From a virus (lineage: Duplodnaviria > Heunggongvirae > Uroviricota > Caudoviricetes): a stretch of DNA of 44,601 nucleotides. The translations under genes and the position numbers were made by a program. Shown piece by piece: positions 9,626 to 24,458 of this stretch. The notes beneath the pieces were generated by a model, which was given only the letters and a program-made list of their open reading frames with translations, was not told the DNA's origin and searched no databases. Every line of letters starts with the position of its first letter. Position 1 is the stretch's first letter. Location of the stretch: the IMG/VR virus record IMGVR_UViG_2711768005_000013; one strand, 5' to 3'.

Positions 9626-9640
9626 TTATTAAAACTCCTG

Positions 9641-9669
9641 ACAACAAAAAACCCACCGCGAAGTGGGTT
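9641..9669 (-). terminator. Terminator-like hairpin with U-tract about 20 nt upstream of the tape measure start
   Basis: Minus strand: AAACCCAC-TTCGCG-GTGGGTTT (perfect 8-bp stem) followed by TTTTTTGTTG. Confidence 0.45.
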
Positions 9670-9790
9670 TCAGGCGACATAATAGTAGATATAGCGATTA
9701 CGAGGCCACGCAATGCTTTTCTCCAGGAGCATCATCGATTTAATTAAAGACACCATCACATCTCTGTAACAGAGTGTACGTAATTAACAA

Positions 9791-10111
9791 CTACACACAC
9801 TGCTCCTGAAAATACTGGTCATCCAGTGCAAAGATCACTGCTTCAAATTCATCGCGCTCAATCAATACCGGATGAGTGGCTAAATATTCATTTATCTCTG
9901 TCAGAGATAAAGGCAAAGGCACCCCAGCCATTCCAGCATAACGTCGGGCACGGGATATTACCGAATAGGCGTACAACAACTCCTTAAGCACCGGGTCTAT
10001 TTCTGGTTCCGGTATCGGTGGCAACCTGAGTTTTTCTCGCTTCCATCTTGCCTTTTCCCCCCTTTCTCCCCCGAACTCCGATAACCACCGCTGGGCAGCT
10101 ATGGCTTTTTT
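9791..10111 (-). CDS. T segment of the G-T tail assembly chaperone fusion (reached by -1 frameshift from G)
   Basis: The -1 frame is open with no stop from the slippery heptamer through 9791 (AIAAQRWLSEFGGERGEKARWKREKLRLPPIPEPEIDPVLKELLYAY...). Confidence 0.6.
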   Translation of the reverse strand, partial: KKAIAAQRWLSEFGGERGEKARWKREKLRLPPIPEPEIDPVLKELLYAYSVISRARRYAGMAGVPLPLSLTEINEYLATHPVLIERDEFEAVIFALDDQYFQEQCV

Positions 10112-10560
10112 ATCGTATCCTGCTTCTGCTGCTCTTTACCCTGGGCGATGCTGGCTGCTTCTGCAAGGATCTGCCAGTACAACTCTGGATTCTGCTTAAG
10201 CAGCGCGATCCCTCGTTCTGCCGTATATTCCAGTGCAACCTCAACACCATTAACCAGTTCACCAACCCCTTTCCAGTCTTTCAGCAGATAACGAGCGGCA
10301 TTATCAATGAGTAAATCATCAACAGAATCCACCTCGGAAACCTTTGAAATATCAAACTCCTTCGTTCCGACGTGCAAACTGGCATCCATTTTCTCAATGT
10401 GGCGACGGATTAATGCATTACGGGAGCGATACTGATCGTTATCGCTGCTTGCCACCAACAGTTTTAACCCGTCTACAGGTTTTAAGTCCTTCATTGGCGT
10501 AAACCAGCGTTCTCCACCAATGATAATTTTCTGATTAAGAATAAACATCCATAACCTCAT
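10099..10560 (-). CDS. Tail assembly chaperone G
   Basis: 153 aa ORF immediately upstream of the slippery site; alternative ATG at 10548 (MFILNQ) with GAGG SD; not lambda G-like in sequence but in the G position. Confidence 0.65.
   Translation of the reverse strand: MRLWMFILNQKIIIGGERWFTPMKDLKPVDGLKLLVASSDNDQYRSRNALIRRHIEKMDASLHVGTKEFDISKVSEVDSVDDLLIDNAARYLLKDWKGVGELVNGVEVALEYTAERGIALLKQNPELYWQILAEAASIAQGKEQQKQDTIKKP
10105..10111 (-). promoter_or_regulatory. Programmed -1 ribosomal frameshift heptamer A_AAA_AAG
   Basis: Minus-strand AAAAAAG with zero-frame codons AAA AAG, two codons before the G stop codon TAG (10099-10101). Confidence 0.6.
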
Positions 10561-10608
10561 TCAATGCGTCCCCCTGTAGGGCAGTACCACAGGAGGAATA
10601 ACGGAAAA

Positions 10609-11571
10609 TCAACTAATCGCCTCAGCACTGGCTTTTGCGATCACGGCAGCCGGGGAATTTTTTTTTCTGGTTATCGTAGGTGCTTCATCTGCTGCGGTAA
10701 TGCTCAATTGAACCTGGATAATGTCGCTATTACCCCCATCAGGCCATTCACCTGACACCTGAACCTTCGGGAAACTGAAAGTGTATGCCCCCTCTCCATT
10801 CGAAAGCGTGAAGCTGAACGGAACTGTTTCTCCAGTCAGTGTTTTACTCCAGATTTCCCACGCGGCTTTAGACCATGAAAGCGTCACCGTACCGGACGGT
10901 GTAAAAGTAGTCGGAATATTTGCTCCTGCATAAGGCGAGCCAGTCCCGATACAACGCTGTGTCTGGAGTTTGTTATCGAACTGAATATCAAAACTGTCGA
11001 TACAAAAACCGTTACCTCCGGCAACACCATTCAGGCTTACTGCTGAAACCTCCTTAAACGAATAACGTAGCTTTCCTGCACTATCCACAGGTTCGCCTTT
11101 GATAAAATTCGTATCATCGGCCTTTGATTCCCAGTCCAGTCCGGCAAAGGTTACGGTCGCTGTAATATCGCCGTCGTTAGGGATCTGCATTTTCCATGAG
11201 CCAACCTGCGCTCCTCTGACGACAGAGGCAATTCCGACATCGGACGCATAGGTCGCCAGAGAAAATGTTATTCGCTCATTCCCCATTGTCAGAGAATCGC
11301 CTGACCATTCCGCGCCGAAACAGGATGCAAGAAAATCATCATGTTGACCCCAGCGAAATTTGGTACCAACATCACCGCCGACATCCACAGTGCCAGGCGT
11401 CGCCCCCTGAGCCATCCGGGAGCCACCAATCTCATTATTTTCGCCTTTATTCTGGGTGGGTTTTACTCCCCAGCTTGTGCGTTTTAATAAACTCCAGTCA
11501 CCACTTGCTGGCGTAGTGCCTGCAACCGTCTCCCGGATAAATGCCGAGATAACCTTTGCACCTGAACTCAC
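10609..11571 (-). CDS. Major tail protein
   Basis: 320 aa, position upstream of G/T; Thr/Ser/Gly-rich beta-type composition. Confidence 0.75.
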   Translation of the reverse strand: MSSGAKVISAFIRETVAGTTPASGDWSLLKRTSWGVKPTQNKGENNEIGGSRMAQGATPGTVDVGGDVGTKFRWGQHDDFLASCFGAEWSGDSLTMGNERITFSLATYASDVGIASVVRGAQVGSWKMQIPNDGDITATVTFAGLDWESKADDTNFIKGEPVDSAGKLRYSFKEVSAVSLNGVAGGNGFCIDSFDIQFDNKLQTQRCIGTGSPYAGANIPTTFTPSGTVTLSWSKAAWEIWSKTLTGETVPFSFTLSNGEGAYTFSFPKVQVSGEWPDGGNSDIIQVQLSITAADEAPTITRKKNSPAAVIAKASAEAIS

Positions 11572-11597
11572 AGGAGCCTCCTATGTCATTAATTGCG

Positions 11598-11990
11598 CTA
11601 GAGCGCGCGATATGGAATTTGAAGATTAAGCTGGAACCAGCCATTCTTTTCGCCAACGGCTATTGAGGAAACAGCCTGGTAACTGAGACGATCGTCATCC
11701 TGAAACTCAAACAGTTCCCGCAATTTATCGGCTGTCTCAGTAATGAGTTTTGAACCAGAACCTGCGGGGACAAATAACTGAATAATGATTATCCCCGTGC
11801 GATAAACAACCGGCCCCGCGCCAATTTCATTAACTCCAGCCTGCCCGGGAATATTACTTAACCGCGCCCAGATTAACTTACCGGAAGGATCGAACGTTGG
11901 CCCGTTCGGATACAATACGTCTTTTCCATCAATAATCGTCTGTGCCGTCATTCTGGAAATAACCGTATTTCTGATTTCAGTAAACTTCAT
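11598..11990 (-). CDS. Tail terminator / tail completion protein (U-like position)
   Basis: 130 aa ORF directly upstream of the major tail gene. Confidence 0.45.
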   Translation of the reverse strand: MKFTEIRNTVISRMTAQTIIDGKDVLYPNGPTFDPSGKLIWARLSNIPGQAGVNEIGAGPVVYRTGIIIIQLFVPAGSGSKLITETADKLRELFEFQDDDRLSYQAVSSIAVGEKNGWFQLNLQIPYRAL

Positions 11991-12367
11991 TTGTAAGCCT
12001 GTAAAACACCATGAAAAGCGTTGGCATACACGCCAGTTGGCGCTTGTTGTGAATGACCGTTTTCAAGAGCCTCTGCATAAGGAAGGTTATTCTGGATATA
12101 AATAACCCCGTAATTTGCAGCTTTCGAAATAACCCCGATCCCACGCTGAACAGCAATCGTACCGTTCGGATCCACGTTATCAGATATACCAAAATCGGGA
12201 TGCTGTAACGACACCAGGTTGTTATTTCTGAAACGTCCGGTATCAACCGGAGCAGCAATATCAATAGCAGTAAGAATCTGCATAGCGATGTAGCGAATCT
12301 TCAGCCCTACATCTTCCTCAATCATCCCGGCAAATATTGACGGTTCTATATCCCATGCCTTTGCCAT
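11987..12367 (-). CDS. HK97 gp10-family tail component
   Basis: Contains PVDTGRFRNN, the characteristic VDTGRLR motif of the HK97 gp10 family. Confidence 0.55.
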   Translation of the reverse strand: MAKAWDIEPSIFAGMIEEDVGLKIRYIAMQILTAIDIAAPVDTGRFRNNNLVSLQHPDFGISDNVDPNGTIAVQRGIGVISKAANYGVIYIQNNLPYAEALENGHSQQAPTGVYANAFHGVLQAYK

Positions 12368-12751
12368 TTACGCTCTCCTTAACTGGATAGAGTAAACTGA
12401 TGCGGAAGGATCTACACTTGCTGTAATTACCTCGTATCGTTGTAACTGCCTTGATACAGGATCATAAATCTCAATAATATGGTCGACAGCTGGTTTATCC
12501 GTAACCTCGCATACCAGAGCGGTTAATTTAAGGTCACCATGCAAAATATTAATCCCATCAATTCTGCCCAGCTTATAACGTGTCAACACGCCTCGCCCGG
12601 TATAGATTGCGGTTGATTCGCCGCCAGTTTCCGTCACAGGATCCCAGTGCCGGTGCGTAACGTAAGAACCAGAAAAATCACTCACGGCGTCCGCTAAATC
12701 CTCATCAAAAGCAGCGGCAACCTCTGACTGAATCTCTTCACGAAGCCCCAT
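12368..12751 (-). CDS. Head-tail joining protein
   Basis: 127 aa ORF in the head-tail connector block; 1-nt coupled with the neighbouring gene. Confidence 0.4.
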   Translation of the reverse strand: MGLREEIQSEVAAAFDEDLADAVSDFSGSYVTHRHWDPVTETGGESTAIYTGRGVLTRYKLGRIDGINILHGDLKLTALVCEVTDKPAVDHIIEIYDPVSRQLQRYEVITASVDPSASVYSIQLRRA

Positions 12752-13146
12752 TATCCCCCCCTCACAACCCTGACTTGTGAGCGACTAAGTCCGTACGGTT
12801 TCAGCAGTGCTATCGCAAGCTGTAAATCGGGTTCAAGCAATGCAGTGCTGTTTGCTGGCAACTCAGAAAATGATTTCGATACACTGACCCCGTCAGCCGA
12901 CACGGCTTTACTGATAACAACGCCAGAATCATTTTTCTGCTGAAACAACTTACCGAATGAGGCAATTCTGGCTGCATATGCTCCCGCAAGTTTTACCTCT
13001 TCCGGAATACGGGATGGGTTAATTTTCAGGTTGAAGCCATTAAGCCAGGCATTAGCCATTAAAACAGCTTTATTTTTAGCGTTCTCACTCGTCCAGGCGT
13101 TCCCAAACGCATTATCAACGTCATCACAGGTCACGTAAGTGATCAT
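12751..13146 (-). CDS. Head-tail connector / adaptor protein
   Basis: 131 aa ORF in the connector block; start ATG overlaps stop of upstream small ORF. Confidence 0.4.
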   Translation of the reverse strand: MITYVTCDDVDNAFGNAWTSENAKNKAVLMANAWLNGFNLKINPSRIPEEVKLAGAYAARIASFGKLFQQKNDSGVVISKAVSADGVSVSKSFSELPANSTALLEPDLQLAIALLKPYGLSRSQVRVVRGG

Positions 13147-13149
13147 GTG

Positions 13150-13326
13150 TTACTCCTGAGTTTTCCAGCCCATAGCCTTCCAGTTGTCAACTTCATCAGG
13201 ATGAACATTAGCGATAGTTGGTGCGCCGGGAAACATCTGATAATCGGTCACCATAACCACTAACTCAATTTGCGTTTTTTGTGCGGCTTCACGCTGTGCT
13301 CTTTGCTCTTTAGTTAATCCGGCCAT
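13150..13326 (-). CDS. Small head-module protein (58 aa), not in the supplied ORF track
   Basis: ATG at 13324-13326, TAA at 13150-13152 abutting the next gene start; translates MAGLTKEQRAQREAAQKTQIELVVMVTDYQMFPGAPTIANVHPDEVDNWKAMGWKTQE. Confidence 0.4.
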   Translation of the reverse strand: MAGLTKEQRAQREAAQKTQIELVVMVTDYQMFPGAPTIANVHPDEVDNWKAMGWKTQE

Positions 13327-13368
13327 ATGCCCCCCATTAAAAATGGGGCCGAAGCCCCGTTTGAATGT

Positions 13369-14508
13369 TTAACCAAGAATCAGACAACCATGTGCCGGCT
13401 TCACTGATGAAACACCCCATGCCAGTCCAACTTCATAGCGCACCTGGCGATACTGACGATACAGTGCAATCTGGAACGTAATCCCTGAAATCGGGTCCGT
13501 AACATTCATTACATCATCAGCATTATCGCCACCTTCCGGCATTGCCGGAGTACGGGATGCCAGCAGAAACGCGTTGCGATCAAACGCCATATTTGCAGTA
13601 AAGGCCCCAACAACTGTGATGGCAGTATCATCGGCCAGATCCTGACGCAGTCCGGGCGCTGCAAGAGTAATCAGATTGCTGGTCGCTGCTGCCACAACAT
13701 ACTGATTCGGATCACCAGCGAACGTAACAATCTGACCTGCAGAAATACTCCCCGAACCAGTATCAATGGAAATAAGAACATCGCCTTCTTTTTTCTCTCC
13801 ATTCACGAGATAACCAGTTGCAGCAACCTTTGGCGCTCGTTTCACACCTGCCGAACTGTGAATATTGAATCCCTCCAGACGCCCCAACACGCCCTCACGC
13901 AGTAGCTGTTCAGTGCCGGATTCATTCACTTTAAACAATACAGACTGTTTTCCGCGCAAATTAGCAATGGCAGTGGAGCCAAGCACCATCTGCAGATCGG
14001 TTGTCGGTGCGCCGTTATCCTCCAGAACCTGACGAGCCAGAGCAGCATCAGAAAGATCATCTTTAACACCAAACGGCGTTGTCCCTGCGGTTCCCACGGC
14101 GCGGGAAGCACCGAAATACAACGCACCAAGATCAGCCTCAACCTCGTTTGCAAGGGCGCGAAAAGCCTGCTTGAACTGATCAGCCAGAATGGTGTTGTAA
14201 GTCCCTGAAGGGCCAAGAGCCAGTTGTTCTTCACCATTCCATTTAACCGGTGCCATTTTGGATTTAGTAATTTTTACATCAACAGTGCCAATATTTTGAT
14301 CACCGGTATTCGGAGCTGACGGCCCCGGTACGATATCTTCGGTTTTCGCCTCAGGCGCAACTGGCGCGGTTACCGTCTGATCTTTTGCTGCGGCGTCAGC
14401 TTTTGCGTTTTTTGCTACCGCAGGGATAAAACCTACCTGCTCACGGGATACAACATCCAGGGCGGTATAAATAGTCGGGATCAACCCGGTCAGGGTATTT
14501 CCAGCCAT
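13369..14508 (-). CDS. Major capsid protein
   Basis: About 380 aa from ATG at 14506-14508 (MAGNTLTGLIP...); the ORF-track start at 14601 is upstream and less likely; located after the scaffold gene. Confidence 0.7.
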   Translation of the reverse strand: MAGNTLTGLIPTIYTALDVVSREQVGFIPAVAKNAKADAAAKDQTVTAPVAPEAKTEDIVPGPSAPNTGDQNIGTVDVKITKSKMAPVKWNGEEQLALGPSGTYNTILADQFKQAFRALANEVEADLGALYFGASRAVGTAGTTPFGVKDDLSDAALARQVLEDNGAPTTDLQMVLGSTAIANLRGKQSVLFKVNESGTEQLLREGVLGRLEGFNIHSSAGVKRAPKVAATGYLVNGEKKEGDVLISIDTGSGSISAGQIVTFAGDPNQYVVAAATSNLITLAAPGLRQDLADDTAITVVGAFTANMAFDRNAFLLASRTPAMPEGGDNADDVMNVTDPISGITFQIALYRQYRQVRYEVGLAWGVSSVKPAHGCLILG

Positions 14509-14606
14509 AATTAAATATTCCTTAAAAATTTGCGTAATTGTGAATAGATGGAGTAATGAGCTATCCAGCCCTGACACCAGCTCCCATCCGGAAGCTGACA
14601 AATGTG

Positions 14607-15371
14607 TTAATCAACGATTGTGATACCGTCTTTCAATGCGTTTTGCTTACCTGCAACATCCAGTGCATCAAAAGCAGAGCGTTTCATCGTTTTCTGACCA
14701 ATATCATGCTGTGTCGGACGGGAGCCGCCGCCATTGTTGCCACTGGCTTTCAGGATGTAGTCTTTCTGAGGGTAATTTTCGACAAGGAACTCCAGCGCCT
14801 CATCAAACTGCGCCAGTTCGCCAGGCTTCGCGCGGGAATAAATTTTGTTGCCGGAAGCGTCATAAGCAACGATCCTCCCTTCTTCCACTTTGAATGCCTG
14901 CCCGAAGCGGGCTTGTAATAAATCTGCCGGGATCGCAATTTTATCGGCAATATATTTTGAACCCGCAAAACTACCGCCAATCATAGAATCGTAAAGCTGC
15001 TTCTCCAGCATCTGAGAGCGTTGCTTTTCTTCATCTAATTGCTGCTGAAAATTTTTCGTAATTTCTGCCTTAACCTGGTCAACCTGTCCCGCATCGAGCA
15101 GCTTTTTCTGGTCGATTTTTGACAGCATTTCCAGTGCCTCGATCGCCTTCTTCGGGTCTTCGATAGCGGCAAACTTAGCCAGTTTTTCCTCTGCAGCTTC
15201 TTTAGCCAGGCGATGATTTTTTGCCTCGCCATTAAGCTCTGTAATTTTTTTTGTCGCCAGCGGTGCATCGAAGCCAATTTCTTTACCATCGTCGTGCACA
15301 TAAACTGGCAGGCCAGCAGTATCAATTTCTGCGTATTGTTTTCCGTTAATCTCGACCGTTTTCAGTTTCAT
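14607..15371 (-). CDS. Scaffolding protein
   Basis: K/E/A/Q-rich coiled-coil-type protein between the F-like head protein and the capsid gene; start taken at ATG 15369-15371 (MKLKTVEING). Confidence 0.5.
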   Translation of the reverse strand: MKLKTVEINGKQYAEIDTAGLPVYVHDDGKEIGFDAPLATKKITELNGEAKNHRLAKEAAEEKLAKFAAIEDPKKAIEALEMLSKIDQKKLLDAGQVDQVKAEITKNFQQQLDEEKQRSQMLEKQLYDSMIGGSFAGSKYIADKIAIPADLLQARFGQAFKVEEGRIVAYDASGNKIYSRAKPGELAQFDEALEFLVENYPQKDYILKASGNNGGGSRPTQHDIGQKTMKRSAFDALDVAGKQNALKDGITIVD

Positions 15372-15475
15372 ATTAGTACCTGGTTTAAGTCTTCCGACAG
15401 TTACGCTGCTCACCATCCGGATCGCAGCAATAAAAAAGGCCACCCGAAGGTAGCCTGTTGTAATAAATGATTTAT

Positions 15476-16591
15476 TTAAATCCCTGCTTTTCTGAATACC
15501 TGTGCATCACGCTCACGGAGCTGCTTCAGCGTCAGCCATTCGCCTTTATCGGTGTAAAATTCATCTGGCGACATACCACCATCCCGAATCAGCTTTGCTC
15601 GGCTTTCCCCCACAATCTGTTTTTGTCTGGTGTAAGGCTGACGCAAAAACCATTCCCTGTAGGTTGTATCTCCGGCCACCACGCCATCCATGCTGGCCCG
15701 CTCAGCCGGGGAAATATCGCGAACATCAATACCCAGTTCCTTCGCTGATTTCAGAATGAACGTTTCCGTTGAGCGGCAGCAGAAATGAATTTTTCCCGGC
15801 CCCTGCAAATAAGGCACGCTGTGACCTACAGGTTTATTATTCAGCGTATATTTGAGGCGATCCCTGATTCGACATTGTGGCGTAGTACGATTATCAAGCG
15901 TTGATAACCATTGCTTACCCTTAATCAAATCATTATTCGCGCTGGCAAAACTCTCACGGGCAGTAGCAGCAAGATGTCCAACCGCTGTTTTTGCAATGCT
16001 GGCCGCATTAGCCCGGCTCATCTGCAATGCACCATCCTGAAATCCCTTACTGACATGTCCCCGAATTTTTCTTGCGATCTGCTCATTGGTATCCCCCAGC
16101 AAAAAACCCTGACGCACTGTATTTGTTATGCGTCTGAGCCGATCCGCCTCAAGATCTGAGGCCCACTCACTGAGCAGTCGTCCCTGGAATGGTCGCGCCA
16201 TTGCAGCGGCATAAAGTGCATCAGGAGAGATACCAACCAGAGGGTGAACATCAGCAACAAAATCAGGTAGCATAGAATCAAACAGACTTAACTGATAACC
16301 AGCCTCATAAATTGCCAGCTCGTTCAGCTCTCCGGAGAGACTGGTAAACATGCTGTTAATAGCAGTGCGGTTAACCTCTCTGACGCTCGCCAGAAGTGAC
16401 TCCAGGCGCTTAACGGTAAAACTACCTGGATCGAGGCTGTCCAGTGCTATCAGCAGGCGAGCAGTAAGTTCCGCATCGCTGTCATTCAGTATTTTCACCA
16501 TTCTGGCAGCCACGCCAGTGCTATAGCGGGATATCCAGACTGCATGAGCAATTGATTCATCACGCAGCCGTTCATTCACGGTTTGCATCAT
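15476..16591 (-). CDS. Head morphogenesis protein (Mu F / SPP1 gp7-like minor head protein)
   Basis: 371 aa directly downstream of portal, the conserved position of F-like proteins. Confidence 0.7.
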   Translation of the reverse strand: MMQTVNERLRDESIAHAVWISRYSTGVAARMVKILNDSDAELTARLLIALDSLDPGSFTVKRLESLLASVREVNRTAINSMFTSLSGELNELAIYEAGYQLSLFDSMLPDFVADVHPLVGISPDALYAAAMARPFQGRLLSEWASDLEADRLRRITNTVRQGFLLGDTNEQIARKIRGHVSKGFQDGALQMSRANAASIAKTAVGHLAATARESFASANNDLIKGKQWLSTLDNRTTPQCRIRDRLKYTLNNKPVGHSVPYLQGPGKIHFCCRSTETFILKSAKELGIDVRDISPAERASMDGVVAGDTTYREWFLRQPYTRQKQIVGESRAKLIRDGGMSPDEFYTDKGEWLTLKQLRERDAQVFRKAGI

Positions 16592-17978
16592 TGATTTCCA
16601 TCAGCATTACACTCTGATTTTTTAATTCATCGATCACTTCCTCTGGACGGGAATCCTGATCGATAAATTTCAACGCCTGCAACACCCGAACCGCATCAAT
16701 CTGACGTATATCACCGCCCTGACGCAATGACTGAACAGCCAGCGCGGAGGATGAGTCAAACACCTGGGCAGATACATCCAGTTCAGTGCGCACATCCACA
16801 TTGCCACCGCAACTCTCTCCGATCCATTCCGCCATTATCTGGAGAATATTATCGAGGGCATCTTCGAGGGAGTTCGCCATTGTATAAAGCGGCGAGTTTT
16901 CCTGCATTCGCTCTTCATTAGTCTGATCAACAGATTTGGTGGATGTATTTTCAGCACGCAGAAGTTTAGCGCCGGCATGACGCATCTGATTTTCCAGCTT
17001 CTCAAGTGATGTTTCGCCAGATTCTATCGCTGCGCCACTATGTTCAACATATTCGAGGCCATTTTTTGTTCTGTCCTCAAAAATCGTAGCGGTGGATGCA
17101 CCAACCGTCAGTTCTTCATTCCTGTCCAGCCCGTAGGCCACCAGCAATGGAACGCGGGCAACATGAAGAATATTGTCCTGCTCGCTCTGGCTTTGCCAGT
17201 GCTTGATATTCAGCAAGCCAAGATTAAGCAATGGCGGTGTACCACGCATAAATCCTGTTTTCTTCGTGTACAGTGTTACCAGAGGAATATCATCACGGCT
17301 GGTATTCCATGACTCATGAAGCGTCCAGACAGATTCGCCATTAGTGCCTTCGCTACGTCGATAAATTTCAACTCGACGGGGCATAATATGGCGGATCTGC
17401 TCCACCTTCTTCTGCCCGAAATCATCACCATCAATAATGATGACCTCTTTTATACGCAAATCAGTGAGAACAACTTTCCCTTTTTCAACTTTCGATTTCC
17501 ATCCAATAACCTGGCGTGGATTCAGCATCGTAACGTACGGACGACCACCGGTCGCGTTTTCATCGGCTTTTGTCCGAATCTCTTTCATATCCGTTCGTGG
17601 ATAGTCCACCAGCGCATGTGCCACACCATACTGAAATGCGAGGCTGAAAAATTGCTGCGCCCACACATCCAGTCGGCTCCCCTCCATGTCGATATTTTCT
17701 GCATATTCCCTGATTTTTGCCGGCGTTTCCTCACTCAATACTGTCGGCTCTGCAAATATGCGCCCAATATTTTGCTTGATGCTTTCTTCATACACAGGAA
17801 GTAGCGTAGCCACAGACAGGCGTTTTTTATAAGCGTCTTCATCTTCGTTAGGCCATTTTGGGAGATAATTTTCCCCCTGCCTGCGCATTTCAAGCGTACC
17901 GCCCATCAGTGCGTCGTTAATATCCCACGCCTCCAGCATATCGTTATAGTCGAGGTTGGGTGTTGATATATCAGCCAT
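16572..17978 (-). CDS. Portal protein
   Basis: 468 aa immediately downstream of terminase large subunit. Confidence 0.8.
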   Translation of the reverse strand: MADISTPNLDYNDMLEAWDINDALMGGTLEMRRQGENYLPKWPNEDEDAYKKRLSVATLLPVYEESIKQNIGRIFAEPTVLSEETPAKIREYAENIDMEGSRLDVWAQQFFSLAFQYGVAHALVDYPRTDMKEIRTKADENATGGRPYVTMLNPRQVIGWKSKVEKGKVVLTDLRIKEVIIIDGDDFGQKKVEQIRHIMPRRVEIYRRSEGTNGESVWTLHESWNTSRDDIPLVTLYTKKTGFMRGTPPLLNLGLLNIKHWQSQSEQDNILHVARVPLLVAYGLDRNEELTVGASTATIFEDRTKNGLEYVEHSGAAIESGETSLEKLENQMRHAGAKLLRAENTSTKSVDQTNEERMQENSPLYTMANSLEDALDNILQIMAEWIGESCGGNVDVRTELDVSAQVFDSSSALAVQSLRQGGDIRQIDAVRVLQALKFIDQDSRPEEVIDELKNQSVMLMEINDANRE

Positions 17979-17980
17979 AA

Positions 17981-19288
17981 TTAAATCCGAAGTGATGTGA
18001 CTCTTCCGGTCGGTTTGACAATAGGGAATTGCTTAACGATGAAATAACCTCCGGCATCATTCGGGTGATCATTGCCAGATTTTTTATCAGGCTCCCCCTT
18101 CTCATCCCAGACCTGTTGCTCCAGAGATTCGGCATATAACGGGCAACGCTTCACATTAACTTTATAGCGACGCTCACCATTGGCATTGCAGAACATTGCA
18201 TTCATTGAGTTAACGCGATCTTTTACTGGCGGGTTCGAGCTGTTCACCACAACGTTAAAACCAGCCTGCTTAAGCTGGGCTATATCCGTCGTACTTGCGT
18301 TACTTGATTTTCTGGAATCCCCGGAAGCATCTGGATAAATATAAATTTCCCTCACTTTCCGGTAATCATTCCCATCATACAGCCAGAAGCGTTCTTTAAT
18401 GATGCGGATCATATCCGGCGTATCGTAGGCATTGATGATTTCAGTTACCGCACATGGAAGCCCCAAACGCAGCACATGGACGATTCCCGCCATCTTTCCA
18501 ACGTTAAAATCCATCCCAATATAAATCGGCTCCCCTGGCTGCTCCACTTCTTCGCAATTATTCAGTTTCCGGTCAAACTGATGGTAAACAGTACCACTTG
18601 TCAGGTTAGTAAACTGTCCTCGAAGATAGGCTTTAATCAGCTCTGGAGGGTATGATTCAAGAAGCGAAGGAATGTAATCTGCTGGCAGGTTCTTTTCATT
18701 ATCGAAAGTAGATGCCTGCACCAGACCATACAGTGAGGCCAGCTCTGTTTTTTCACGCACGGCTTTAACAAACTGCTCGTAGACAAATTTGAATCCTTCC
18801 GGCGTGGTTGTAACGTCAATACCGTTGCGAAGTCCATCAATCTTATAACGCATACGTGCAATTATCTTGCGCCACGCCGTTCTGGCTTTTTCCTTCGGCA
18901 AAATGTCCAGTTCATCCACCAACGCATTACCAATTTTGAAACCGACGATCGTTTGTGGCTTCTCCATCGATCTGCAGATAGTGGTTCCCCGATACTGGCG
19001 TCCGTAATAAAAGTGAACCTCTTTATTTCCCTCATTAATTTTTACGTTCAATCCCCAGTCAGCAGCAACTTCTTCCACTGTAGGGTAAAAAATATCGCGA
19101 ATTTGGGGATACGTTGGCGCAAAATATCCCTGATTTATACCTGGATGCTCCCAAATCCCCTTGCATATGCCGCCACACCCAACCCATGTTTTGCCCGAGC
19201 CAAAACCAGCAATATAGGCTTTAAATTTATGGGGCATTGAAAGAAATCGCGCCTGAGGCACATTAAGCGTCGGAGAGATCATCTTCAT
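17981..19288 (-). CDS. Terminase large subunit
   Basis: Walker A-like AGFGSGKT near the N-terminus, acidic C-terminal nuclease-like region; start taken at ATG 19286-19288 (ORF-track GTG at 19291). Confidence 0.8.
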   Translation of the reverse strand: MKMISPTLNVPQARFLSMPHKFKAYIAGFGSGKTWVGCGGICKGIWEHPGINQGYFAPTYPQIRDIFYPTVEEVAADWGLNVKINEGNKEVHFYYGRQYRGTTICRSMEKPQTIVGFKIGNALVDELDILPKEKARTAWRKIIARMRYKIDGLRNGIDVTTTPEGFKFVYEQFVKAVREKTELASLYGLVQASTFDNEKNLPADYIPSLLESYPPELIKAYLRGQFTNLTSGTVYHQFDRKLNNCEEVEQPGEPIYIGMDFNVGKMAGIVHVLRLGLPCAVTEIINAYDTPDMIRIIKERFWLYDGNDYRKVREIYIYPDASGDSRKSSNASTTDIAQLKQAGFNVVVNSSNPPVKDRVNSMNAMFCNANGERRYKVNVKRCPLYAESLEQQVWDEKGEPDKKSGNDHPNDAGGYFIVKQFPIVKPTGRVTSLRI

Positions 19289-20357
19289 CACTCCTTACTC
19301 TGGCATCAACCACATTAATATTGATCGCCACAGGCTGGGGATGTTCATTATCTTCCACCGTTTCGATCTCTTTGCGCAGCTTCTGGTTTTCCATTCTGCG
19401 CCGTTCAATTTCCAGTTCCCGTAGCCGCTTATCTGCACATAAAGCCCCGCCAGCAGAAAACAAACGCAACAATTCACGCCGGGCGGCAGCCTTATCCTCC
19501 AGCAGGATCTCAACGCCGAATTTTCCGAATTTTGCCCCTGCATATAATTGCCGCGCATCCCCATCAAGCAGAGTGGTATCAGCCATATAAAGCTGTCCCG
19601 TTCCCTCACCGCAGCACTTCGGGCAGTCCGGATTGGGTATGGCGTTATCAACAAAGCCGAGGCCTCCATATTCCGGTTCGGGTTTGCCATCTCTGGAAGC
19701 CTGCGCCGCTGCCTTGTCGAATTCTGCTATATCGCGCCACTGGTAGAGATGATTCTCGCCCCAGCAATAACGGCAGTTAACACGGCGAAATTGTGCAAGC
19801 TGATTGGGGTCGGCCAGGACAATAGCCATCAACTGACTCACTAGTAAATCCAGGTCTGCGGTATAGCGTTTCTGGTACTGATTGCGGAAGTAGCTGATAG
19901 CGCGAAAAACCCTGGCATTTCTAAGCATACGACTGGCGTTGCTGTTAGCTGTCGCACCTTGCCCCTCATAACCGGCTAGTCGGTACGCCTCTGTCGGCTT
20001 TTTACCCTGAGCAACAAGCATCGCAAACTTAGCCTGCTGGTCAGAAATGCCGAATTCATCGGGACAGAACGAAAATTCCTCCGCGTCGCCCTCATTCAGG
20101 CCCGCATCGAATACTGGCTTTTTTTCCTGAGATTTTTCGTTCCGCTTTTGTGCAGTCTGCGCAGATTTTTTCTGCGCACTTTTTTGCGCAGTTTTGCACA
20201 TTTCTGTCTGCGCATTTTTCGGAGTTTTTTTGATGTAACGACGGGCTGTTGCGTAATTCAGTCCCCTTGCTTCACACCATGCCACCGGAGATATACCGGA
20301 GCGGGTGTATTCAGCAATATACTCCTGCTGCAACGCCCCCCAGTCCGGTCTGCTCAT
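19263..20357 (-). CDS. Terminase small subunit-like protein with N-terminal HTH and K/A/Q-rich linker
   Basis: Directly upstream of and overlapping terminase large subunit; N-terminal HTH-like segment; unusually long (364 aa). Confidence 0.5.
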   Translation of the reverse strand: MSRPDWGALQQEYIAEYTRSGISPVAWCEARGLNYATARRYIKKTPKNAQTEMCKTAQKSAQKKSAQTAQKRNEKSQEKKPVFDAGLNEGDAEEFSFCPDEFGISDQQAKFAMLVAQGKKPTEAYRLAGYEGQGATANSNASRMLRNARVFRAISYFRNQYQKRYTADLDLLVSQLMAIVLADPNQLAQFRRVNCRYCWGENHLYQWRDIAEFDKAAAQASRDGKPEPEYGGLGFVDNAIPNPDCPKCCGEGTGQLYMADTTLLDGDARQLYAGAKFGKFGVEILLEDKAAARRELLRLFSAGGALCADKRLRELEIERRRMENQKLRKEIETVEDNEHPQPVAININVVDARVRSDEDDLSDA

Positions 20358-20360
20358 CAG

Positions 20361-20612
20361 TTAGTCCTGATTTTTATCCACCCTGAGTAGTTCGCGCAGA
20401 GCAAAGGCATCCCCTTTTCTGGCAAGCTTAAACAATGCCGCTCGTAACTCGGCTTCACCTTTCGCTCTGCCCTTACGGATGGCCGCATAAAAATCTGTCA
20501 TTGCTTCCCGATTTTCTTTCAGTCGGTTCAGATCAACATCCAGAACGTCAGCGATTTGTTGTGCAGTCATCCGGCACGCTGCCAGAGACTCGACTTTCGA
20601 ATACGGAATCAT
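20361..20612 (-). CDS. Hypothetical small protein with HTH-like segment
   Basis: 83 aa ORF whose stop abuts the terS-like start (TAACTGATG); possible internal start at MTAQQIADV. Confidence 0.35.
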   Translation of the reverse strand: MIPYSKVESLAACRMTAQQIADVLDVDLNRLKENREAMTDFYAAIRKGRAKGEAELRAALFKLARKGDAFALRELLRVDKNQD

Positions 20613-21498
20613 TTGTCACCCCCATTGATATGCAGGGTGTCTTCTTCCTGTATTTTTCGTGAAGGATTTTTACTGCAGCGTTGTTCCAGGTGACCTGATG
20701 GTGAATGCGTTTATGACTGGCACCCATAAGTGAGATTTTTACGCACGACGGCGCATACATGACGGAGTAAAAACTTTTAACGTAGGTTCCGGAATCCAGA
20801 TACAGCTCGGTCATTCCGCCGCTGTTTTTCTGCGTCTGTTTCTGCCCTAACTGGACAGCACCGATCGTCATAAACAATTCACCACAGCGACCGAGATTCG
20901 TGTACGTATTCACATCCTCGTTAATGCGCCCCATGAATGAGAACGGTCGATCAACCGAACAGATAAAGCTGTTCATTGCCTTGCGTTTCACCCACGAAGC
21001 ATGGCCGCCATTGTCACCAAGAAAATCCCCGCCCTGCGACATAGCGATGGAAAGAGCAGGTATTGATTCGTAGTACGCAAGCATTTCAGAAAGGATCTCA
21101 TCCAGTTTCCTTATCGGGAAATAGGCCTGGTCATAGTTGCGATCCACCCGAAACTGGAACTCGTGATAATCATCATCGAGCTGAATGAAGTATTTACACC
21201 CGACCAGTTTTGCCTGGTCGAAACAGGCATTACGGGCGTAAAAAATTGAGCGGCGGTCACTAAAATTATCGGCTTCGTCAAAACGACTAGCAATATCGGC
21301 TTTGGAAAATACCAGCACCTGTTCACCAAATTCAGCCATGTACTGATGCCGTGTCTTATCTTCATCATCAACAACGATAAAAATTTTCCCGGTATAGCCA
21401 GCACGACGCAACGTCCGGTAAGTCAGAACTTTGTCCGGTCGCCCGTGAGTCAGAATAAAGGCGCAAAAATCATCACGCATATTCCTCCTCCCCGCCAT
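20548..21498 (-). CDS. Putative GT-A-fold glycosyltransferase-like protein
   Basis: N-terminal FILTHGRPDKVL...IFIVVDDED and a DxD-type motif YFIQLDDDY; assignment from motifs only. Confidence 0.35.
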   Translation of the reverse strand: MAGRRNMRDDFCAFILTHGRPDKVLTYRTLRRAGYTGKIFIVVDDEDKTRHQYMAEFGEQVLVFSKADIASRFDEADNFSDRRSIFYARNACFDQAKLVGCKYFIQLDDDYHEFQFRVDRNYDQAYFPIRKLDEILSEMLAYYESIPALSIAMSQGGDFLGDNGGHASWVKRKAMNSFICSVDRPFSFMGRINEDVNTYTNLGRCGELFMTIGAVQLGQKQTQKNSGGMTELYLDSGTYVKSFYSVMYAPSCVKISLMGASHKRIHHQVTWNNAAVKILHEKYRKKTPCISMGVTNDSVFESRVSGSVPDDCTTNR

Positions 21499-22261
21499 GC
21501 ATGATCTCCACCATGCGCTGCGTCATTCGGACAAATCCATTTTCAATAGCCTGCTGATAATCAATGATCACCAGCGCCGACTCCTCGAAAAGGCACTGAA
21601 TTTCAGCGGGGGCATGAGCGTAATAGTCCGCAATTCTGCTGAAATTAAACACCGTGTGACGTTCTGCTGCACACAGGAGGAATTTCTCAATATCAGGATC
21701 AAGGGACGCCGAACGTATCCGGCTGATCAGCTCCTGAGTTTTCGTATCGTCGTACAGTTCACTGATATCCGGTTTACCGCCTGACGGCTCATAAACAGGC
21801 GTATCAATTTTCGTCGTATACGGCTCCTCCTCATTTCCTGTACCGGGCAAAACATCCGTCAACAGTTCATCAATTTCTGCCGGGATGAAGCCTGTCAGGG
21901 AGACATCAAAATCAGCATTGATTAGGTCCGACAGCTCCATCCGCAACAGATCTTCATCCCAGCCAGCATTCATCGGCAGGCGATTATCTGCCAGGCGGTA
22001 CGCCTTTTTCTGCTCATCCGTCAGGCCAGACAGAACAATGACCGGAACAGAATCCATTTTGAGCATTTCAGCCGCCATAACACGACCGTGACCCGCAATA
22101 ATTTCGCCCTTTTCGTCAATCAGCACCGGATTAGTCCAGCCGAATTGCTTAATACTTTCTACCAGTTGTGCCACCTGCTCAGTACTGTGCGTCCTGGCGT
22201 TGTGCGCATACGGTGACAATTCTTGTAATGGGCGATAGACTATCTTTAATTTCTCGCTCAT
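21473..22261 (-). CDS. ParB-like nuclease domain protein
   Basis: N-terminal ParB/Srx-type motifs (NPVLIDEKGEIIAGHGR); K-12 ynaK is probably a short N-terminal remnant of this gene. Confidence 0.7.
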   Translation of the reverse strand: MSEKLKIVYRPLQELSPYAHNARTHSTEQVAQLVESIKQFGWTNPVLIDEKGEIIAGHGRVMAAEMLKMDSVPVIVLSGLTDEQKKAYRLADNRLPMNAGWDEDLLRMELSDLINADFDVSLTGFIPAEIDELLTDVLPGTGNEEEPYTTKIDTPVYEPSGGKPDISELYDDTKTQELISRIRSASLDPDIEKFLLCAAERHTVFNFSRIADYYAHAPAEIQCLFEESALVIIDYQQAIENGFVRMTQRMVEIMHGGEEEYA

Positions 22262-22398
22262 ACAGCCTTGCTTTATGAATAAAACGCACCCCAGCAGCCA
22301 GTGCTACTGGGGGCGGAGGTGTTGCTGGTAAAGTTAGGTATTGGATCAATGAGTGAGTCAACATAATATTAAACTCACAATTATAAATCAGCCATATA

Positions 22399-23856
22399 TT
22401 AGGAGCGCCAAAAAAAACCTGAAAACAATATAATAACAGGATAAATTTCAAGGCGACCAAGAATCATAGCTATGCACATTAAATATTTTGCAATGTCATT
22501 AAGCACTCCGAATGACGATGCAGTAGCCCCAAAACCTAATCCCATATTATTAATACATGCAGCCACTGTTGCAAATGATGTAAGAAAATCATATCCCATA
22601 CCATTTAACACCAGTATAAAAAACACCGTGAAGAGAGTATAAAGAAAAAAGAAACTCCATACAGACCTCATTACACGATCTGTAACTATCTTCCCTCCTA
22701 CATTTACACTCAACAACGCTCTGGGATGAGAAAGCTGATTTATCTCGTGTTTGCTTTGTTTGAAAAGTATAAGAAATCGAAGTGACTTAATTCCACCACA
22801 GGTTGAACCTATACATCCCCCAAAGAAACTTGACAACAGCAAAAACACTATCGTGTGCGTGGGCCAGTTTGCATAATCCTGCGTAGCTAAACCATTATCA
22901 GTGAGCATGGAGCTGGCAAGAAAAAACGAATGAATAAAACTTCCATGCAAGTCATACATACCTATATGCCAGACCTGGAAAGAGGTAACAATGATCACCC
23001 CTAAGGCTATTAACAGAAAGAAACGAAGTTCAATATCTCTGATTAAAGGTTTTATCGTTTTTCTGCTAATAACAATATACCAAAGAGTGAAGTTGAAAGC
23101 CGATAGCAGGGAAAAAGAACCAGCCACCAGCTCAACCAAATAGTTATTAAAATATCCGATACTCTCGCTATGAGTTGAGAAACCACCAAGCGAAACTGTG
23201 GAAATCCCGTGACAAATAGCATCAAACAAAGGCATTCCTGCAAGTCTATAACAGACAATACAAGCAATACCTAATAAAGAATAAGTTATCCACAGTGTCC
23301 GTGACGTATCGGCCAGGCGGGGAGTGAGTTTGTCATCCTTAAATGGCCCCGGCATTTCTGACTGATAAAGCTTTGCACCACCAATACCCAATAATGGCAA
23401 TACTGCAACCGCCAGAACAATAACTCCTAAACCACCTATAAAATTTAACTGTGACCGATAGTACAAATATGCCCGAGGTAATGAACTAACATCATCAATT
23501 ACAGTTGCTCCTGTTGTTGTTATTCCAGAAACCCCTTCAAACAGAGCATCAATGAACGTTAAATTAAGTTCTGAGTCAATCCATAAAGGGAATGCACTAA
23601 TAACAGAAAACAAAATCCAAAACATTACAATTATAATAAACCCATCACGGGTACGTAATTGAATGCCAGATTTCTTAGTTGTATACCACGCTCCGCCACC
23701 AATGCAAAAAAATATAACGAAAGTTATAAAGAAAACGAACAGGCTTTTTTCTTTATAAAACAATGCTACAACCATTGGTGGCAACATTGAAAGACTATAG
23801 AGCCAAACCAGGAACCCACACATATGAGTAACAACTCTTACATGAGATGTATTCAT
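22399..23856 (-). CDS. trkG: Trk-system K+ uptake protein TrkG
   Basis: 485 aa from ATG at 23854-23856 (MNTSHVRVVTHMCGFLVWLY), multi-pass membrane protein with TrkH-family GxTTTGATV motif; visibly AT-rich. Confidence 0.9.
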   Translation of the reverse strand: MNTSHVRVVTHMCGFLVWLYSLSMLPPMVVALFYKEKSLFVFFITFVIFFCIGGGAWYTTKKSGIQLRTRDGFIIIVMFWILFSVISAFPLWIDSELNLTFIDALFEGVSGITTTGATVIDDVSSLPRAYLYYRSQLNFIGGLGVIVLAVAVLPLLGIGGAKLYQSEMPGPFKDDKLTPRLADTSRTLWITYSLLGIACIVCYRLAGMPLFDAICHGISTVSLGGFSTHSESIGYFNNYLVELVAGSFSLLSAFNFTLWYIVISRKTIKPLIRDIELRFFLLIALGVIIVTSFQVWHIGMYDLHGSFIHSFFLASSMLTDNGLATQDYANWPTHTIVFLLLSSFFGGCIGSTCGGIKSLRFLILFKQSKHEINQLSHPRALLSVNVGGKIVTDRVMRSVWSFFFLYTLFTVFFILVLNGMGYDFLTSFATVAACINNMGLGFGATASSFGVLNDIAKYLMCIAMILGRLEIYPVIILFSGFFWRS

Positions 23857-23993
23857 ATCTAAATATTCTTTCAATTATAACCACCTTGCTGCAATATTAT
23901 GATTATACTGTATAAAATTTAACTCCTCTTAGATCTTACTTCACTGTTCCTTATGAAACAATCATCAAAATGAATCATATTGTAGTTAAGATT

Positions 23994-24458
23994 TTACTTT
24001 AAACACTGCTCGGTTATGTATTGCTGAGCACCTTCAAGTTGGGCCTGCATCATTACCAGTCGTTCCCGGAGGGTGAAATAATCCCGTTCAGCGGTGTCTG
24101 CCAGTCGGGGGGAGGCTGCATTATCCACGCCGGAGGCGGTGGTGGCTTCACGCACTGACTGACAGACTGCTTTGATGTGCAACCGACGACGACCAGCGGC
24201 AACATCATCACGCAGAGCATCATTTTCAGCTTTCGCATCAGCTAACTCCTTCGTGTATTTTGCATCGAGCGCAGCAACATCACGCTGACGCATCTGCATG
24301 TCAGTAATTGCCGCGTTCGCCAGCTTCAGTTCTCTGGCATTTTTGTCGCGCTGGGCTTTGTAGGTAATGGCGTTATCACGGTAATGATTAACAGCCCATG
24401 ACAGGCAGACGATGATGCAGATAACCAGAGCGGAGATAATCGCGGTTACTCTGTTCAT
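23994..24458 (-). CDS. rzpR: Spanin inner-membrane subunit (Rz)
   Basis: N-terminal TM segment then coiled-coil; final gene of the lysis cassette; contains embedded Rz1 frame. Confidence 0.8.
24053..24238 (-). CDS. rzoR: Spanin outer-membrane lipoprotein subunit (Rz1), embedded in Rz in an alternative frame
   Basis: 61 aa with lipobox LVVVGC and Pro-rich mature region ([15 protein letters not shown]). Confidence 0.75.

Follow-up and report, generated by a model that had tools for sequence, protein, structure and literature searches.

A ParB-like gene and a TAGT-family glycosyltransferase gene form a conserved pair ahead of the terminase genes of a Rac-type prophage

Two adjacent genes in a Rac-type prophage of E. 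coli, one that codes for a ParB-like protein, the other for a glycosyltransferase (GT), constitute a functional pair, as the initial annotation of this DNA had supposed, since the two are linked in a near-obligate manner across phyla. Quite possibly, although we hold this view tentatively, they make up a module of the ParB-Tls locus type, a glycosyltransferase of two subunits that is directed at DNA. Throughout, the window is the whole stretch of DNA that was analysed, 44,601 nucleotides in length; the pair with all features inside it, the terminase genes, and the hairpin and small ORF described below lie on its minus strand.

The gene pair and its prophage

The gene order in the window agrees with that described initially: the pair sits between trkG (22399..23874) and the genes for the small (TerS; 19263..20357, Pfam Terminase_2) and large (TerL; 17981..19291, Pfam Terminase_6N/6C) terminase subunits. 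With its low GC and its own terminator, trkG is a clear moron. A terminator-like hairpin followed by a T-run (22289..22312), found by consensus scan and inspection of the sequence, separates the trkG stop from the start of the ParB-like gene. A small ORF of 83 aa (20361..20612; 69 aa in RefSeq) with a TerS-like HTH segment (phrog_309, E 8e-23) lies between the GT and TerS genes and is kept after the GT gene in Pantoea, Serratia and other loci.

The ynaK-type ParB-like gene (21473..22261) is an ORF of 262 aa with matches to Pfam ParB_N and phrog_620. The longest ORFs, 21473..22261 and 20548..21498 (316 aa), are as first described and share 26 nt, but the start of the second had to be moved. According to the alignment of homologs, the GT begins at the second ATG (M7, 21478-21480), and a Shine-Dalgarno sequence, GGGGAGGAGG, lies ahead of it at 21484-21493; we therefore take the GT gene to be 20548..21480, encoding 310 aa as in RefSeq and matching Pfam PF20691. 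The true overlap between the GT start and the ParB-like stop is thus 8 nt (ATGCGTGA). This junction (21473..21493), with its short overlap and internal Shine-Dalgarno sequence, indicates that translation of the GT is coupled to that of its acidic 262-aa partner. Both are genuine and intact genes: of 5426 complete E. coli genomes, 867 cover at least 80% of the 2.1-kb region, and homologs of the GT and of the ParB-like protein each number in the thousands, so that neither ORF is due to chance.

The ynaK and ydaY genes of K-12 Rac had been regarded as probable remnants of the two genes. For ynaK this is correct, as it corresponds to the truncated 5' end of the ParB-like gene, whose first ~84 codons are left, but ydaY has a different origin. 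Comparison of a K-12-type locus (L002) with the window by blastn, together with the annotations, revealed that a segment of 11,557 bp (10451..22007) is cleanly deleted in K-12 Rac, removing the GT, terminase, head and tail-tube genes; no trace of the GT is left in K-12. The ydaY side aligns to window positions 8691-10450 in the tail region, and ydaY itself corresponds to the gene at 10099..10458, which is flanked by those for the tail tube and the tape measure; it was therefore rejected as a GT remnant. It abuts the truncated ynaK in K-12 because the intervening segment was deleted there.

The glycosyltransferase and its partner

Over residues 14-228 the GT scores 118.8 bits (E 4e-34) in its match to Pfam PF20691 (TAGT, TET-associated glycosyltransferase), for which the cut-off is 27.5. 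The AlphaFold2 (AF2) models of the GT and its partner are only moderately confident overall (pLDDT 65 and 69, respectively); in that of the GT the N-terminal half exceeds a pLDDT of 90 and the C-terminal third is unreliable. The best Foldseek matches of the GT model are viral TAGT proteins (E 2.7e-19), and SpsA, SunS and glycogenin are found among GT-A enzymes; a sequence search of the PDB gave no match at E<=1. The fold check thus returned a GT-A transferase, and the earlier assignment of the 316-aa product to GT-A/DxD glycosyltransferases is borne out. So are the two Asp-rich motifs on which attention had first fallen, FIVVDDED and IQLDDDY, since D44/D47 in the former and D108-D110 in LDDDY are invariant in an 18-sequence alignment reaching down to 59% identity. 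The catalytic residues R20 (21439-21441), D108-D110 (21169-21177) and E194-D195 (20914-20919) are invariant in the aligned homologs, and the R...DDD...ED motif that they form is the one reported for phage DNA GT-A enzymes (preprint 10.1101/2023.12.21.572611). Identity between GTs is 43-65% across phyla, an archaeal virus included. Neither the GT nor its partner has a transmembrane (TM) segment or a signal-like hydrophobic stretch. Judged by sequence and model, the GT is a TAGT-family enzyme of the GT-A type, located in the cytoplasm and with its nucleotide-sugar/metal motif intact. In RefSeq it is named 'GREB1-related protein'. The GT has a basic median pI of 8.8, with a pI of 9.6 for its C-terminal segment (residues 223-290), and the partner is strongly acidic (pI 4.5; median pI 4.6).

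That the 262-aa protein is of the ParB/Srx type was confirmed by Pfam ParB_N (PF02195; 29.3 bits, cut-off 26.3), by phrog_620 (E 1.7e-90) and by Foldseek matches of its AF2 model to Noc, ParB (ParB-CDP), PadC and KorB (E 6.5e-7 to 1e-4); its score against TIGR00180 (38 bits) lies below the cut-off of 58, and a Pfam scan found no recognisable HTH family. ParB_N and a short helical module occupy residues 1-135 (21857..22261), as judged from phrog_498 (E 6e-51), PADLOC and alignment to Spo0J. The PADLOC model MTase_II matches residues 13-151 (E 1.5e-38), and the ParB_N module is the same as that at the N-terminus of phage ParB-methyltransferase fusions. In the alignment to Spo0J, the arginine patch reads GHGR (22082-22093) instead of GERR; N21-x-R23 and D92-N93 are conserved. 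A predicted disordered linker follows, which is modelled unreliably (pLDDT <50 for residues 137-157). From conservation and pLDDT we delimit in it a linear motif, Y148-T-x-K-I-x-x-P-x-Y157-x-P159 (21785..21820; more generally Y-x-x-K-I-x-x-P-x-Y-x-P), whose Y/P/Y residues are invariant across phyla. The helical and acidic C-terminal domain (C-domain; residues 140-255, 21497..21844) was delimited by its conservation and its occurrence as a standalone protein. It has 1195 representative clusters, no Pfam family and no PDB relative by sequence, a profile search of the PDB having returned only chance-level helical matches (best E 0.017). No database carries an annotation for it. It is better conserved than ParB_N, and it is the C-domain rather than ParB_N that makes up the invariant part of the partner.

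Linkage across phages and the probable acceptor

We sampled loci at one genome per species across many phyla. In these species-representative loci the end of the partner gene falls no more than 60 nt from the GT start for 58 of 61 evaluable GT genes, the remaining three being second copies in tandem cassettes; an overlap of 8 or 11 nt is found in 48 of the 58 cassettes, and the partner is present in every GT cassette. In the other direction, a TAGT gene follows the C-domain in all four C-domain representatives looked up. The archaeal virus HHTV-2 and phages of Lactobacillus, Nocardia and Vibrio have the pair as well. The pairing spans Proteobacteria, Firmicutes, Bacteroidota and an archaeal virus and holds for essentially every cassette examined. 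The C-domain may stand beside the GT without ParB_N (L100, L114, L119, L120, L139 and the Vibrio phage L156), and such cassettes are flanked by the genes for DNA polymerase A and the beta clamp or neighbour those for primase/helicase. No natural partner-GT fusion occurs among 150 C-domain representatives; the single candidate, P0241, proved to be an E. coli junction fragment and was discarded. The only alternative N-terminal domains fused to the C-domain are of the divergent ParB_N/GmrSD_N type. Membership of a defence system was also considered and rejected, the only PADLOC match being to the ParB_N segment of an MTase model.

It is very unlikely, given such linkage, that the two genes are independent, with the ParB-like protein serving packaging or partition as a nuclease or DNA-binding accessory and the GT an unrelated moron, acting for example in lysogenic conversion of surface glycans. 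ParB-like 'nuclease' genes are indeed frequent beside terminase genes, and a moron, trkG, is the immediate neighbour. However, the two genes occur together in nearly 100% of cases, their 8/11-nt overlaps being conserved across phyla and in either gene context, conservation of the partner falls on a non-ParB domain found only beside TAGT-type GTs, both proteins are devoid of TM and signal-like stretches, and no ParA is annotated in the prophage and no HTH was detected in the partner. Furthermore, the pair often decays in lysogens, as 743 of the 1610 E. coli genomes with a match fall below 80% coverage of its region, which argues against a gene that benefits the lysogen.

If the pair is the DNA-directed module that we tentatively favour, it would be transcribed in a late operon comprising lysis genes, trkG, ynaK, GT and terminase. 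The C-terminal domain of ~110 aa and/or the linker motif would bind the GT and then activate or position it, while the ParB/Srx NTP-binding module, as fused to orphan phage DNA methyltransferases, would couple the enzyme to replicating or packaging DNA. An NDP-sugar would donate the sugar, which would be placed on phage DNA ahead of packaging or in its course and would protect that DNA, once injected, against host restriction or other defences. To our knowledge, all characterised phage members of the TAGT family glycosylate DNA bases. The contexts of the cassette are all DNA transactions, either ahead of terminases or inside replication modules. Moreover, the downstream terminases belong to at least five Pfam families, as assigned by Pfam scans of the other loci, and phmmer found the window's terminase proteins to be non-homologous to those of the other loci; conservation of the GT beside unrelated terminases and capsids argues for a universal acceptor. 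Direct DNA binding by the partner is unsupported, as this protein is strongly acidic and has no recognisable HTH. Counted against the DNA-directed reading were the dispensability of ParB_N in some lineages, the GHGR in place of GERR, and the absence of a hydroxymethyl-pyrimidine pathway from the surroundings of the cassette.

For known TAGT, JGT and TET-linked GTs the acceptor has to be 5hmC, 5hmU or a sugar that is already in place. The annotation of the prophage contains no TET/JBP, thymidylate-synthase-like hydroxymethylase, alpha-GT or beta-GT; acceptor-supplying genes of these kinds are likewise absent among the top-25 neighbour families listed for ~27 loci, and the complete genome of Lactobacillus phage c5 (31.8 kb) has none annotated. 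The suggestion that the pair is a DNA-modification or packaging-associated module therefore stands in part: it fits the published ParB-Tls prediction, as that is related in citing papers, but the prophage has no annotated source of a hydroxymethyl-pyrimidine acceptor. One bolder form of the proposal, which we consider unlikely, is that the cassette is a self-sufficient two-subunit enzyme placing sugar directly onto canonical DNA without a hydroxymethyl-pyrimidine precursor, either on an exocyclic N or O of an ordinary base or at replication or packaging DNA ends. If this were true, phage DNA modification would gain a new chemical class, spread over bacterial and archaeal viruses and encoded in about one-sixth of complete E. 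coli genomes, and the C-terminal domain would represent a new type of subunit, which activates or targets the GT.

The missing hydroxymethyl-base source also speaks for a protein acceptor, be it linker Tyr/Thr residues of the GT's own partner, in the manner of glycogenin, or a packaging or virion protein. The invariant linker motif, albeit in a low-confidence linker, offers two Tyr residues, and Foldseek matched glycogenin as well as SunS/ThuS, which are peptide S-glycosyltransferases, although such matches are generic to the GT-A fold. In addition, the TAGT relative GREB1 is reported to be a protein O-GlcNAc transferase (PMC7968844), and mycobacteriophage GTs near structural genes have been proposed to modify capsids (PMC4351075). 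However, the GT and C-domain are conserved across phages with non-homologous terminases, portals and capsids, which makes a virion protein an unlikely acceptor; the occurrence of the cassette in replication modules and the ParB_N module shared with DNA methyltransferases also weigh against protein glycosylation, and on balance we regard it as unlikely, although self-glycosylation of the partner would be compatible with all of our results.

Improbable, in our view, is a small-molecule substrate, whereby the ParB/Srx domain would be an NTP-using enzyme and the pair an anti-defence or metabolic module that modifies or depletes a nucleotide, nucleotide-sugar or immune signal. ParB/Srx-fold phosphotransferases (sulfiredoxin and a serine kinase) are among the structural matches, the putative NTP-pocket residues of the partner are conserved, and no macromolecular acceptor is evident. 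Nevertheless, many functional-looking cassettes lack ParB_N, the cassette heads a late packaging operon or sits in replication modules rather than among early anti-defence genes, and PADLOC gives no match beyond the MTase-type ParB_N.

Solitary TAGTs, with no hydroxymethyl-base pathway, are common in phages, and the window places one in E. coli, the most tractable host, for which K-12 without the GT is a natural null background. Our comparative results narrow reconstitution to two proteins, the GT and a specific partner domain, with ParB_N optional. Should the pair modify DNA, this would reveal either an acceptor so far hidden or a modification with new chemistry, with a bearing on evasion of restriction and other defences, host range in phage therapy and sequencing-based methylome calls. 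Should a protein be the acceptor, the family, at present annotated as enzymes acting on DNA, would be redefined in part.

Comparison with known systems

The GT-A enzymes associated with TET/JBP or thymidylate synthase (Burke et al.) have the Pfam family, fold and R...DDD...ED motif in common with the GT of the window. They differ in that they glycosylate 5hmC/5hmU supplied by an adjacent MTase and TET or hydroxymethylase, whereas the window's cassette has neither. In that work ParB-like genes and terminase are listed among the frequent GT-A neighbours, and ~65% of GT contigs, which have no TET/hydroxymethylase-type neighbours, were set aside as of unclear role (10.1101/2023.12.21.572611). Similarly, 'solitary' TAGTs were flagged as unexplained in 288 of 753 phage genomes (PMC13216743). 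The T6 TAGT, like the TET-linked GT-A enzymes (10.1101/2023.12.21.572611), acts on DNA. The beta-glucosyl-HMC-alpha-glucosyltransferase of T2/T6 is assigned to PF20691 in the literature and thus resembles our GT in family, with DNA as its substrate, but it adds a second glucose onto alpha-glucosyl-5hmC and depends on the hmC pathway and an alpha-GT. At E<=1e-5, tblastn detected no similarity between the T-even enzymes and the window's GT, and no T-even phage was among the matches. For want of that similarity and of an hmC/alpha-GT context, we rejected the PHROG 842 label "beta-glucosyl-HMC-alpha-glucosyltransferase" as a statement of function.

ParB-like NTPases are known to serve DNA-modifying enzymes, as DpdB does for DpdA and as does DndB (PMC12839542). 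The Dpd and Dnd systems resemble the pair in having a ParB-like NTPase as an accessory of a DNA-base-modifying enzyme; in contrast, their catalytic partners are unrelated to the GT (a tRNA-guanine transglycosylase homolog and the PAPS-reductase-like DndC), and they reside in host defence islands, not phage late operons. With Spo0J, Noc and KorB the partner shares the ParB/Srx N-terminal fold, but it is strongly acidic, has GHGR rather than GERR, and is without an HTH/parS-binding domain, a ParB C-terminal dimerisation domain or a ParA. As GERRxRA, HTH, dimerisation domain and cognate ParA are all wanting in the sequence, the partner does not appear to be a partition-type ParB.

The closest parallel is with the ParB-Tls loci of phages and prophages, named after ParB and the terminase large subunit (Iyer et al. 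2013, NAR 41:7635), whose definition we took from citing papers (PMC6536676, PMC4738411). As described there, a ParB predicted to direct a modification apparatus to phage DNA during packaging is followed by one or more DNA-modifying genes and then by terminase, which is the gene order of the window, and the ParB_N module fused to MTases in such loci is that of the window. By the same accounts, the pair differs in three respects: its enzyme is a TAGT-type glycosyltransferase instead of a methyltransferase, the enzyme is joined through a dedicated C-terminal domain of the partner instead of by fusion, and that domain also occurs without ParB_N, away from terminase, in replication modules. Insofar as those papers define it, the pair matches a class of DNA-modification loci, linked to packaging, that had already been predicted. 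Cassettes of this kind have thus been predicted computationally before, and the pair described here is a further member, known from its sequence and from models.

Organisation of the locus and its partial loss from K-12

The window is a lambdoid prophage of the Rac type from E. coli, 100% identical to strain EC2 across the region of interest. On the minus strand, the lysis genes are followed by trkG (22399..23874), the ParB-like partner of 262 aa (21473..22261), the glycosyltransferase (GT) ORF with a longest reading of 316 aa (20548..21498), a small ORF of 83 aa (20361..20612), TerS (19263..20357), TerL (17981..19291), and then portal, head and tail genes. The pair is thus present as described in the initial annotation, with both ORFs correctly placed; only the GT start and the overlap required refinement. 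Since GT homologs begin at the second methionine, M7, with its own upstream signal, GGGGAGGAGG, just 5' of the ATG at 21478-21480, we take the GT to be 310 aa long, as in RefSeq, where it is named "GREB1-related protein". This ATG and the partner stop codon share the sequence ATGCGTGA, and the true partner-GT overlap as read from it is 8 nt, a translational-coupling junction of the classic kind.

trkG has a terminator-like hairpin of its own (22289-22312), which lies between it and the cassette. The GC content of trkG is low (36-41%), and the gene looks like a moron inserted in the late operon; in relatives that lack trkG, such as Pantoea L007, the cassette comes after the lysis region and a few small ORFs. 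The small ORF at 20361-20612 matches the HTH portion of TerS family phrog_309, keeps its place right behind the GT in a few distant loci as well as in Pantoea, Serratia and Superficieibacter, and may be a DNA-recognition subunit split from the terminase.

The K-12-type Rac locus aligns with window 8691-10450 and 22008-24438. The two aligned blocks overlap by 2 nt where they meet, and on this alignment K-12 Rac carries a single clean deletion of 11,557 bp (window 10451-22007; junctions 10450/22008), which takes out the GT, terminase, portal, head and tail-tube genes and puts a truncated ynaK beside ydaY. Both K-12 genes had been proposed as remnants of the pair. This holds for ynaK, the initial ~84 codons of the ParB-like gene. 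It fails for ydaY: since ydaY corresponds to window 10099..10458 and the GT is absent from K-12, it is not a GT remnant, and its counterpart in the intact prophage lies between the tail-tube and tape-measure genes, in the position of a tail-assembly chaperone. E. coli K-12 is a clean test bed for the putative function of the pair.

The EC2 copy of the prophage is probably defective, because an IS1 breaks up its tape-measure gene and its tail-tube gene carries an annotated frameshift (window ~6270-6960 and ~10609-11571; 5968-6665 and 10311-11272 in the EC2 locus); the ParB-like/GT pair is intact nonetheless. RefSeq (PGAP) labels the ParB-like gene of EC2 a partial pseudogene 'missing C-terminus' (window 22004-22261; 21705-21962 in the EC2 locus). 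Despite this label, which was probably anchored on the truncated 87-aa K-12 YnaK, the 262-aa ORF is unbroken and, compared with its homologs, complete. The window contains runs of N, that is, masked sequence, at 2668-2964, 24594-24843 and 34101-34443, the second of which falls within the lysozyme (rrrD-like) gene. In an E. coli genome collection, 16 of 1629 matching places lay in plasmid sequences; these may represent phage-plasmids or prophage fragments that were captured.

The glycosyltransferase and its ParB-like partner

The GT matches Pfam PF20691, TET-associated glycosyltransferase (E 4e-34), and phrog_842. Confidence in its AF2 model is high for the N-terminal half and poor beyond residue 225; the top matches of the model are viral TAGT-domain proteins (E 2.7e-19), and against the PDB it matched the GT-A enzymes SpsA, SunS and glycogenin (E ~1e-4). 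In an alignment with identity down to 59%, R20, D44, D47, D108-D110 and E194-D195 are invariant along with many others, in agreement with the R...DDD...ED motif reported for phage DNA GT-A enzymes. The earlier recognition of a DxD motif in the 316-aa protein is borne out by the Pfam match, the invariant D108-D110 and the GT-A matches of the model. GTs of this kind are basic (median pI 8.8, n=62), and residues 223-290, outside the span of the Pfam model, form a basic segment.

The N-terminus of the partner is a ParB/Srx domain (Pfam 29.3 bits; phrog_620 E 1.7e-90), with Noc, CDP-bound ParB, PadC and KorB as matches to its model. We rejected a role as a partition ParB: the arginine patch reads GHGR, the HTH and the ParB C-terminal domain are both missing, and the annotation of the window's prophage includes no ParA. 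Partner proteins are uniformly acidic (median pI 4.6, n=49), and no hydrophobic stretch that could form a TM helix occurs in either protein of the pair.

Conservation of the pair across phages

A scan of one genome per species gave 66 loci, with GTs 45-99% identical, from Proteobacteria, Bacteroidota, Firmicutes, Planctomycetota, Acidobacteriota, Saccharibacteria and others. The pair occurs in Pantoea prophages, in a Sphingomicrobium contig with the gene order HNH-ParB-GT-GT, in Lactobacillus phages phi jlb1 and c5, where the partner gene is annotated, in archaeal virus HHTV-2 (genes 21/22) and in Vibrio phages of ~195 kb; GT homologs are also found in phages LL-Ku and phiLdb and in Nocardia phage NTR1. 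Enough upstream sequence was available for 61 full-length GT genes; in 58 of these a partner homolog ends no more than 60 nt from the GT start, with an overlap of 8 or 11 nt at 48 of the 58 junctions; the other three are second GT copies of tandem cassettes that possess a partner. That the two genes are functionally independent is very improbable given this near-universal pairing.

The best-conserved region of the partner across phyla is not ParB_N but C-terminal residues ~140-255 (hereafter the C-domain), in which an invariant Y-T-x-K-I-x-x-P-x-Y-x-P in a predicted disordered linker precedes a helical domain. No Pfam family covers it, and no sequence-related structure has been solved. In several lineages this region alone constitutes the partner (e.g. 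L100, L114, L119, L120, L139 and a Vibrio phage, whose 139-aa protein is 55% identical to window partner residues 141-244). A search of 1.84 billion representative proteins with the C-domain as query returned 1195 clusters, in which the domain is always C-terminal and its carriers take two forms, proteins of ~250-300 aa with a sometimes divergent ParB_N and standalone proteins of 128-200 aa; a TAGT gene directly followed in all four representatives whose contigs were examined.

Cassettes containing ParB have terminases downstream, which fall into at least five Pfam families for the large subunit and several for the small subunit; in Lactobacillus phage c5, whose genome is complete, the order is cos, ParB-like, GT, two small ORFs, TerL. 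Those without ParB_N are located within replication modules: between DNA polymerase A and the beta clamp (order polymerase, C-domain, GT, clamp in L119 and L120), beside a primase-helicase (L114), or, in the Vibrio phages, near primase, exonuclease and helicase. Both contexts are DNA transactions. DNA methyltransferases and helicases are present among the top 25 neighbour families listed for ~27 loci, from which TET/JBP and thymidylate-synthase-type enzymes are absent, although rare singletons are possible; the annotations of the window's prophage and of phage c5 likewise include no enzyme of the latter kinds.

Several cassettes are elaborated (L138 3581-5272; L003 2207-3938; L135 9172-10870; L159 1262-2230), with tandem GT-GT behind one partner, a radical-SAM gene between GT and TerL, or, in Hyphomonadaceae, two GTs, one of which carries a fused class-I SAM methyltransferase domain. 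Such variants suggest longer or decorated glycans in some phages. The Bacteroidales/Lachnospiraceae phage-like loci with a standalone C-domain and GT between PolA and the beta clamp (L119, L120, L139) also encode RecA, and two of the three carry a dATP/dGTP diphosphohydrolase N-terminal domain (PF18909). Enzymes of this type are linked to genomes with a non-canonical base, 2-aminoadenine.

Proposed function and relation to known systems

We tentatively favour, at somewhat less than even odds, a two-subunit DNA-directed glycosyltransferase. The pair would be made from the late transcript; the GT would be the catalytic subunit, bound by the acidic partner via its C-domain and linker motif; and the ParB_N module, where present, would couple the enzyme to DNA undergoing packaging. 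DNA would be the acceptor, with a putative anti-restriction role. The initial annotation had suggested that the pair could be a DNA-modification or packaging-associated module, and its interpretation is supported in part: the GT identity, the pairing and the DNA-transaction contexts speak for that suggestion, whereas its appeal to ydaY as a GT remnant falls away. The main objection is chemical: the characterised relatives all depend on a hydroxymethyl base or on a sugar already in place, and neither is supplied here. Moreover, an acidic partner and a ParB_N that can be dispensed with both make it less likely that ParB brings the enzyme to DNA. The chief rival, which we consider unlikely, is that the GT glycosylates protein, including self-glycosylation of the invariant Tyr/Thr motif of the partner; it would avoid the need for a modified base, and the DNA-transaction contexts favour a DNA acceptor. 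A small-molecule acceptor faces the same contexts and is less probable still.

Our literature search found no experimental study of the cassette and no account of the C-terminal partner domain. The kind of locus is already known, as a computational prediction. ParB-like genes and terminase were reported as neighbours of phage GT-A genes, ~65% of GT contigs having no 5mYOX or ThyS neighbour (2023 preprint, 10.1101/2023.12.21.572611), and solitary TAGT homologs, their role unexplained, occur in 288 of 753 phage genomes (2026 paper, PMC13216743). Dpd and Dnd DNA-modification systems use ParB-like NTPases as accessory subunits (PMC12839542). Passages of PMC6536676 and PMC4738411 credit to Iyer et al. 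(2013) the "ParB-Tls locus" of phages and prophages, in which a ParB-like gene and the terminase large subunit flank methyltransferases "and other DNA modifying genes", and in which ParB, sometimes fused to the methyltransferase, was proposed to steer the modification apparatus at packaging. Residues 1-~140 of the partner are a much closer match to the N-terminal part of phage ParB-DNA-methyltransferase fusions than to chromosomal ParB (phrog_498 E 6e-51; PADLOC MTase_II E 1.5e-38).
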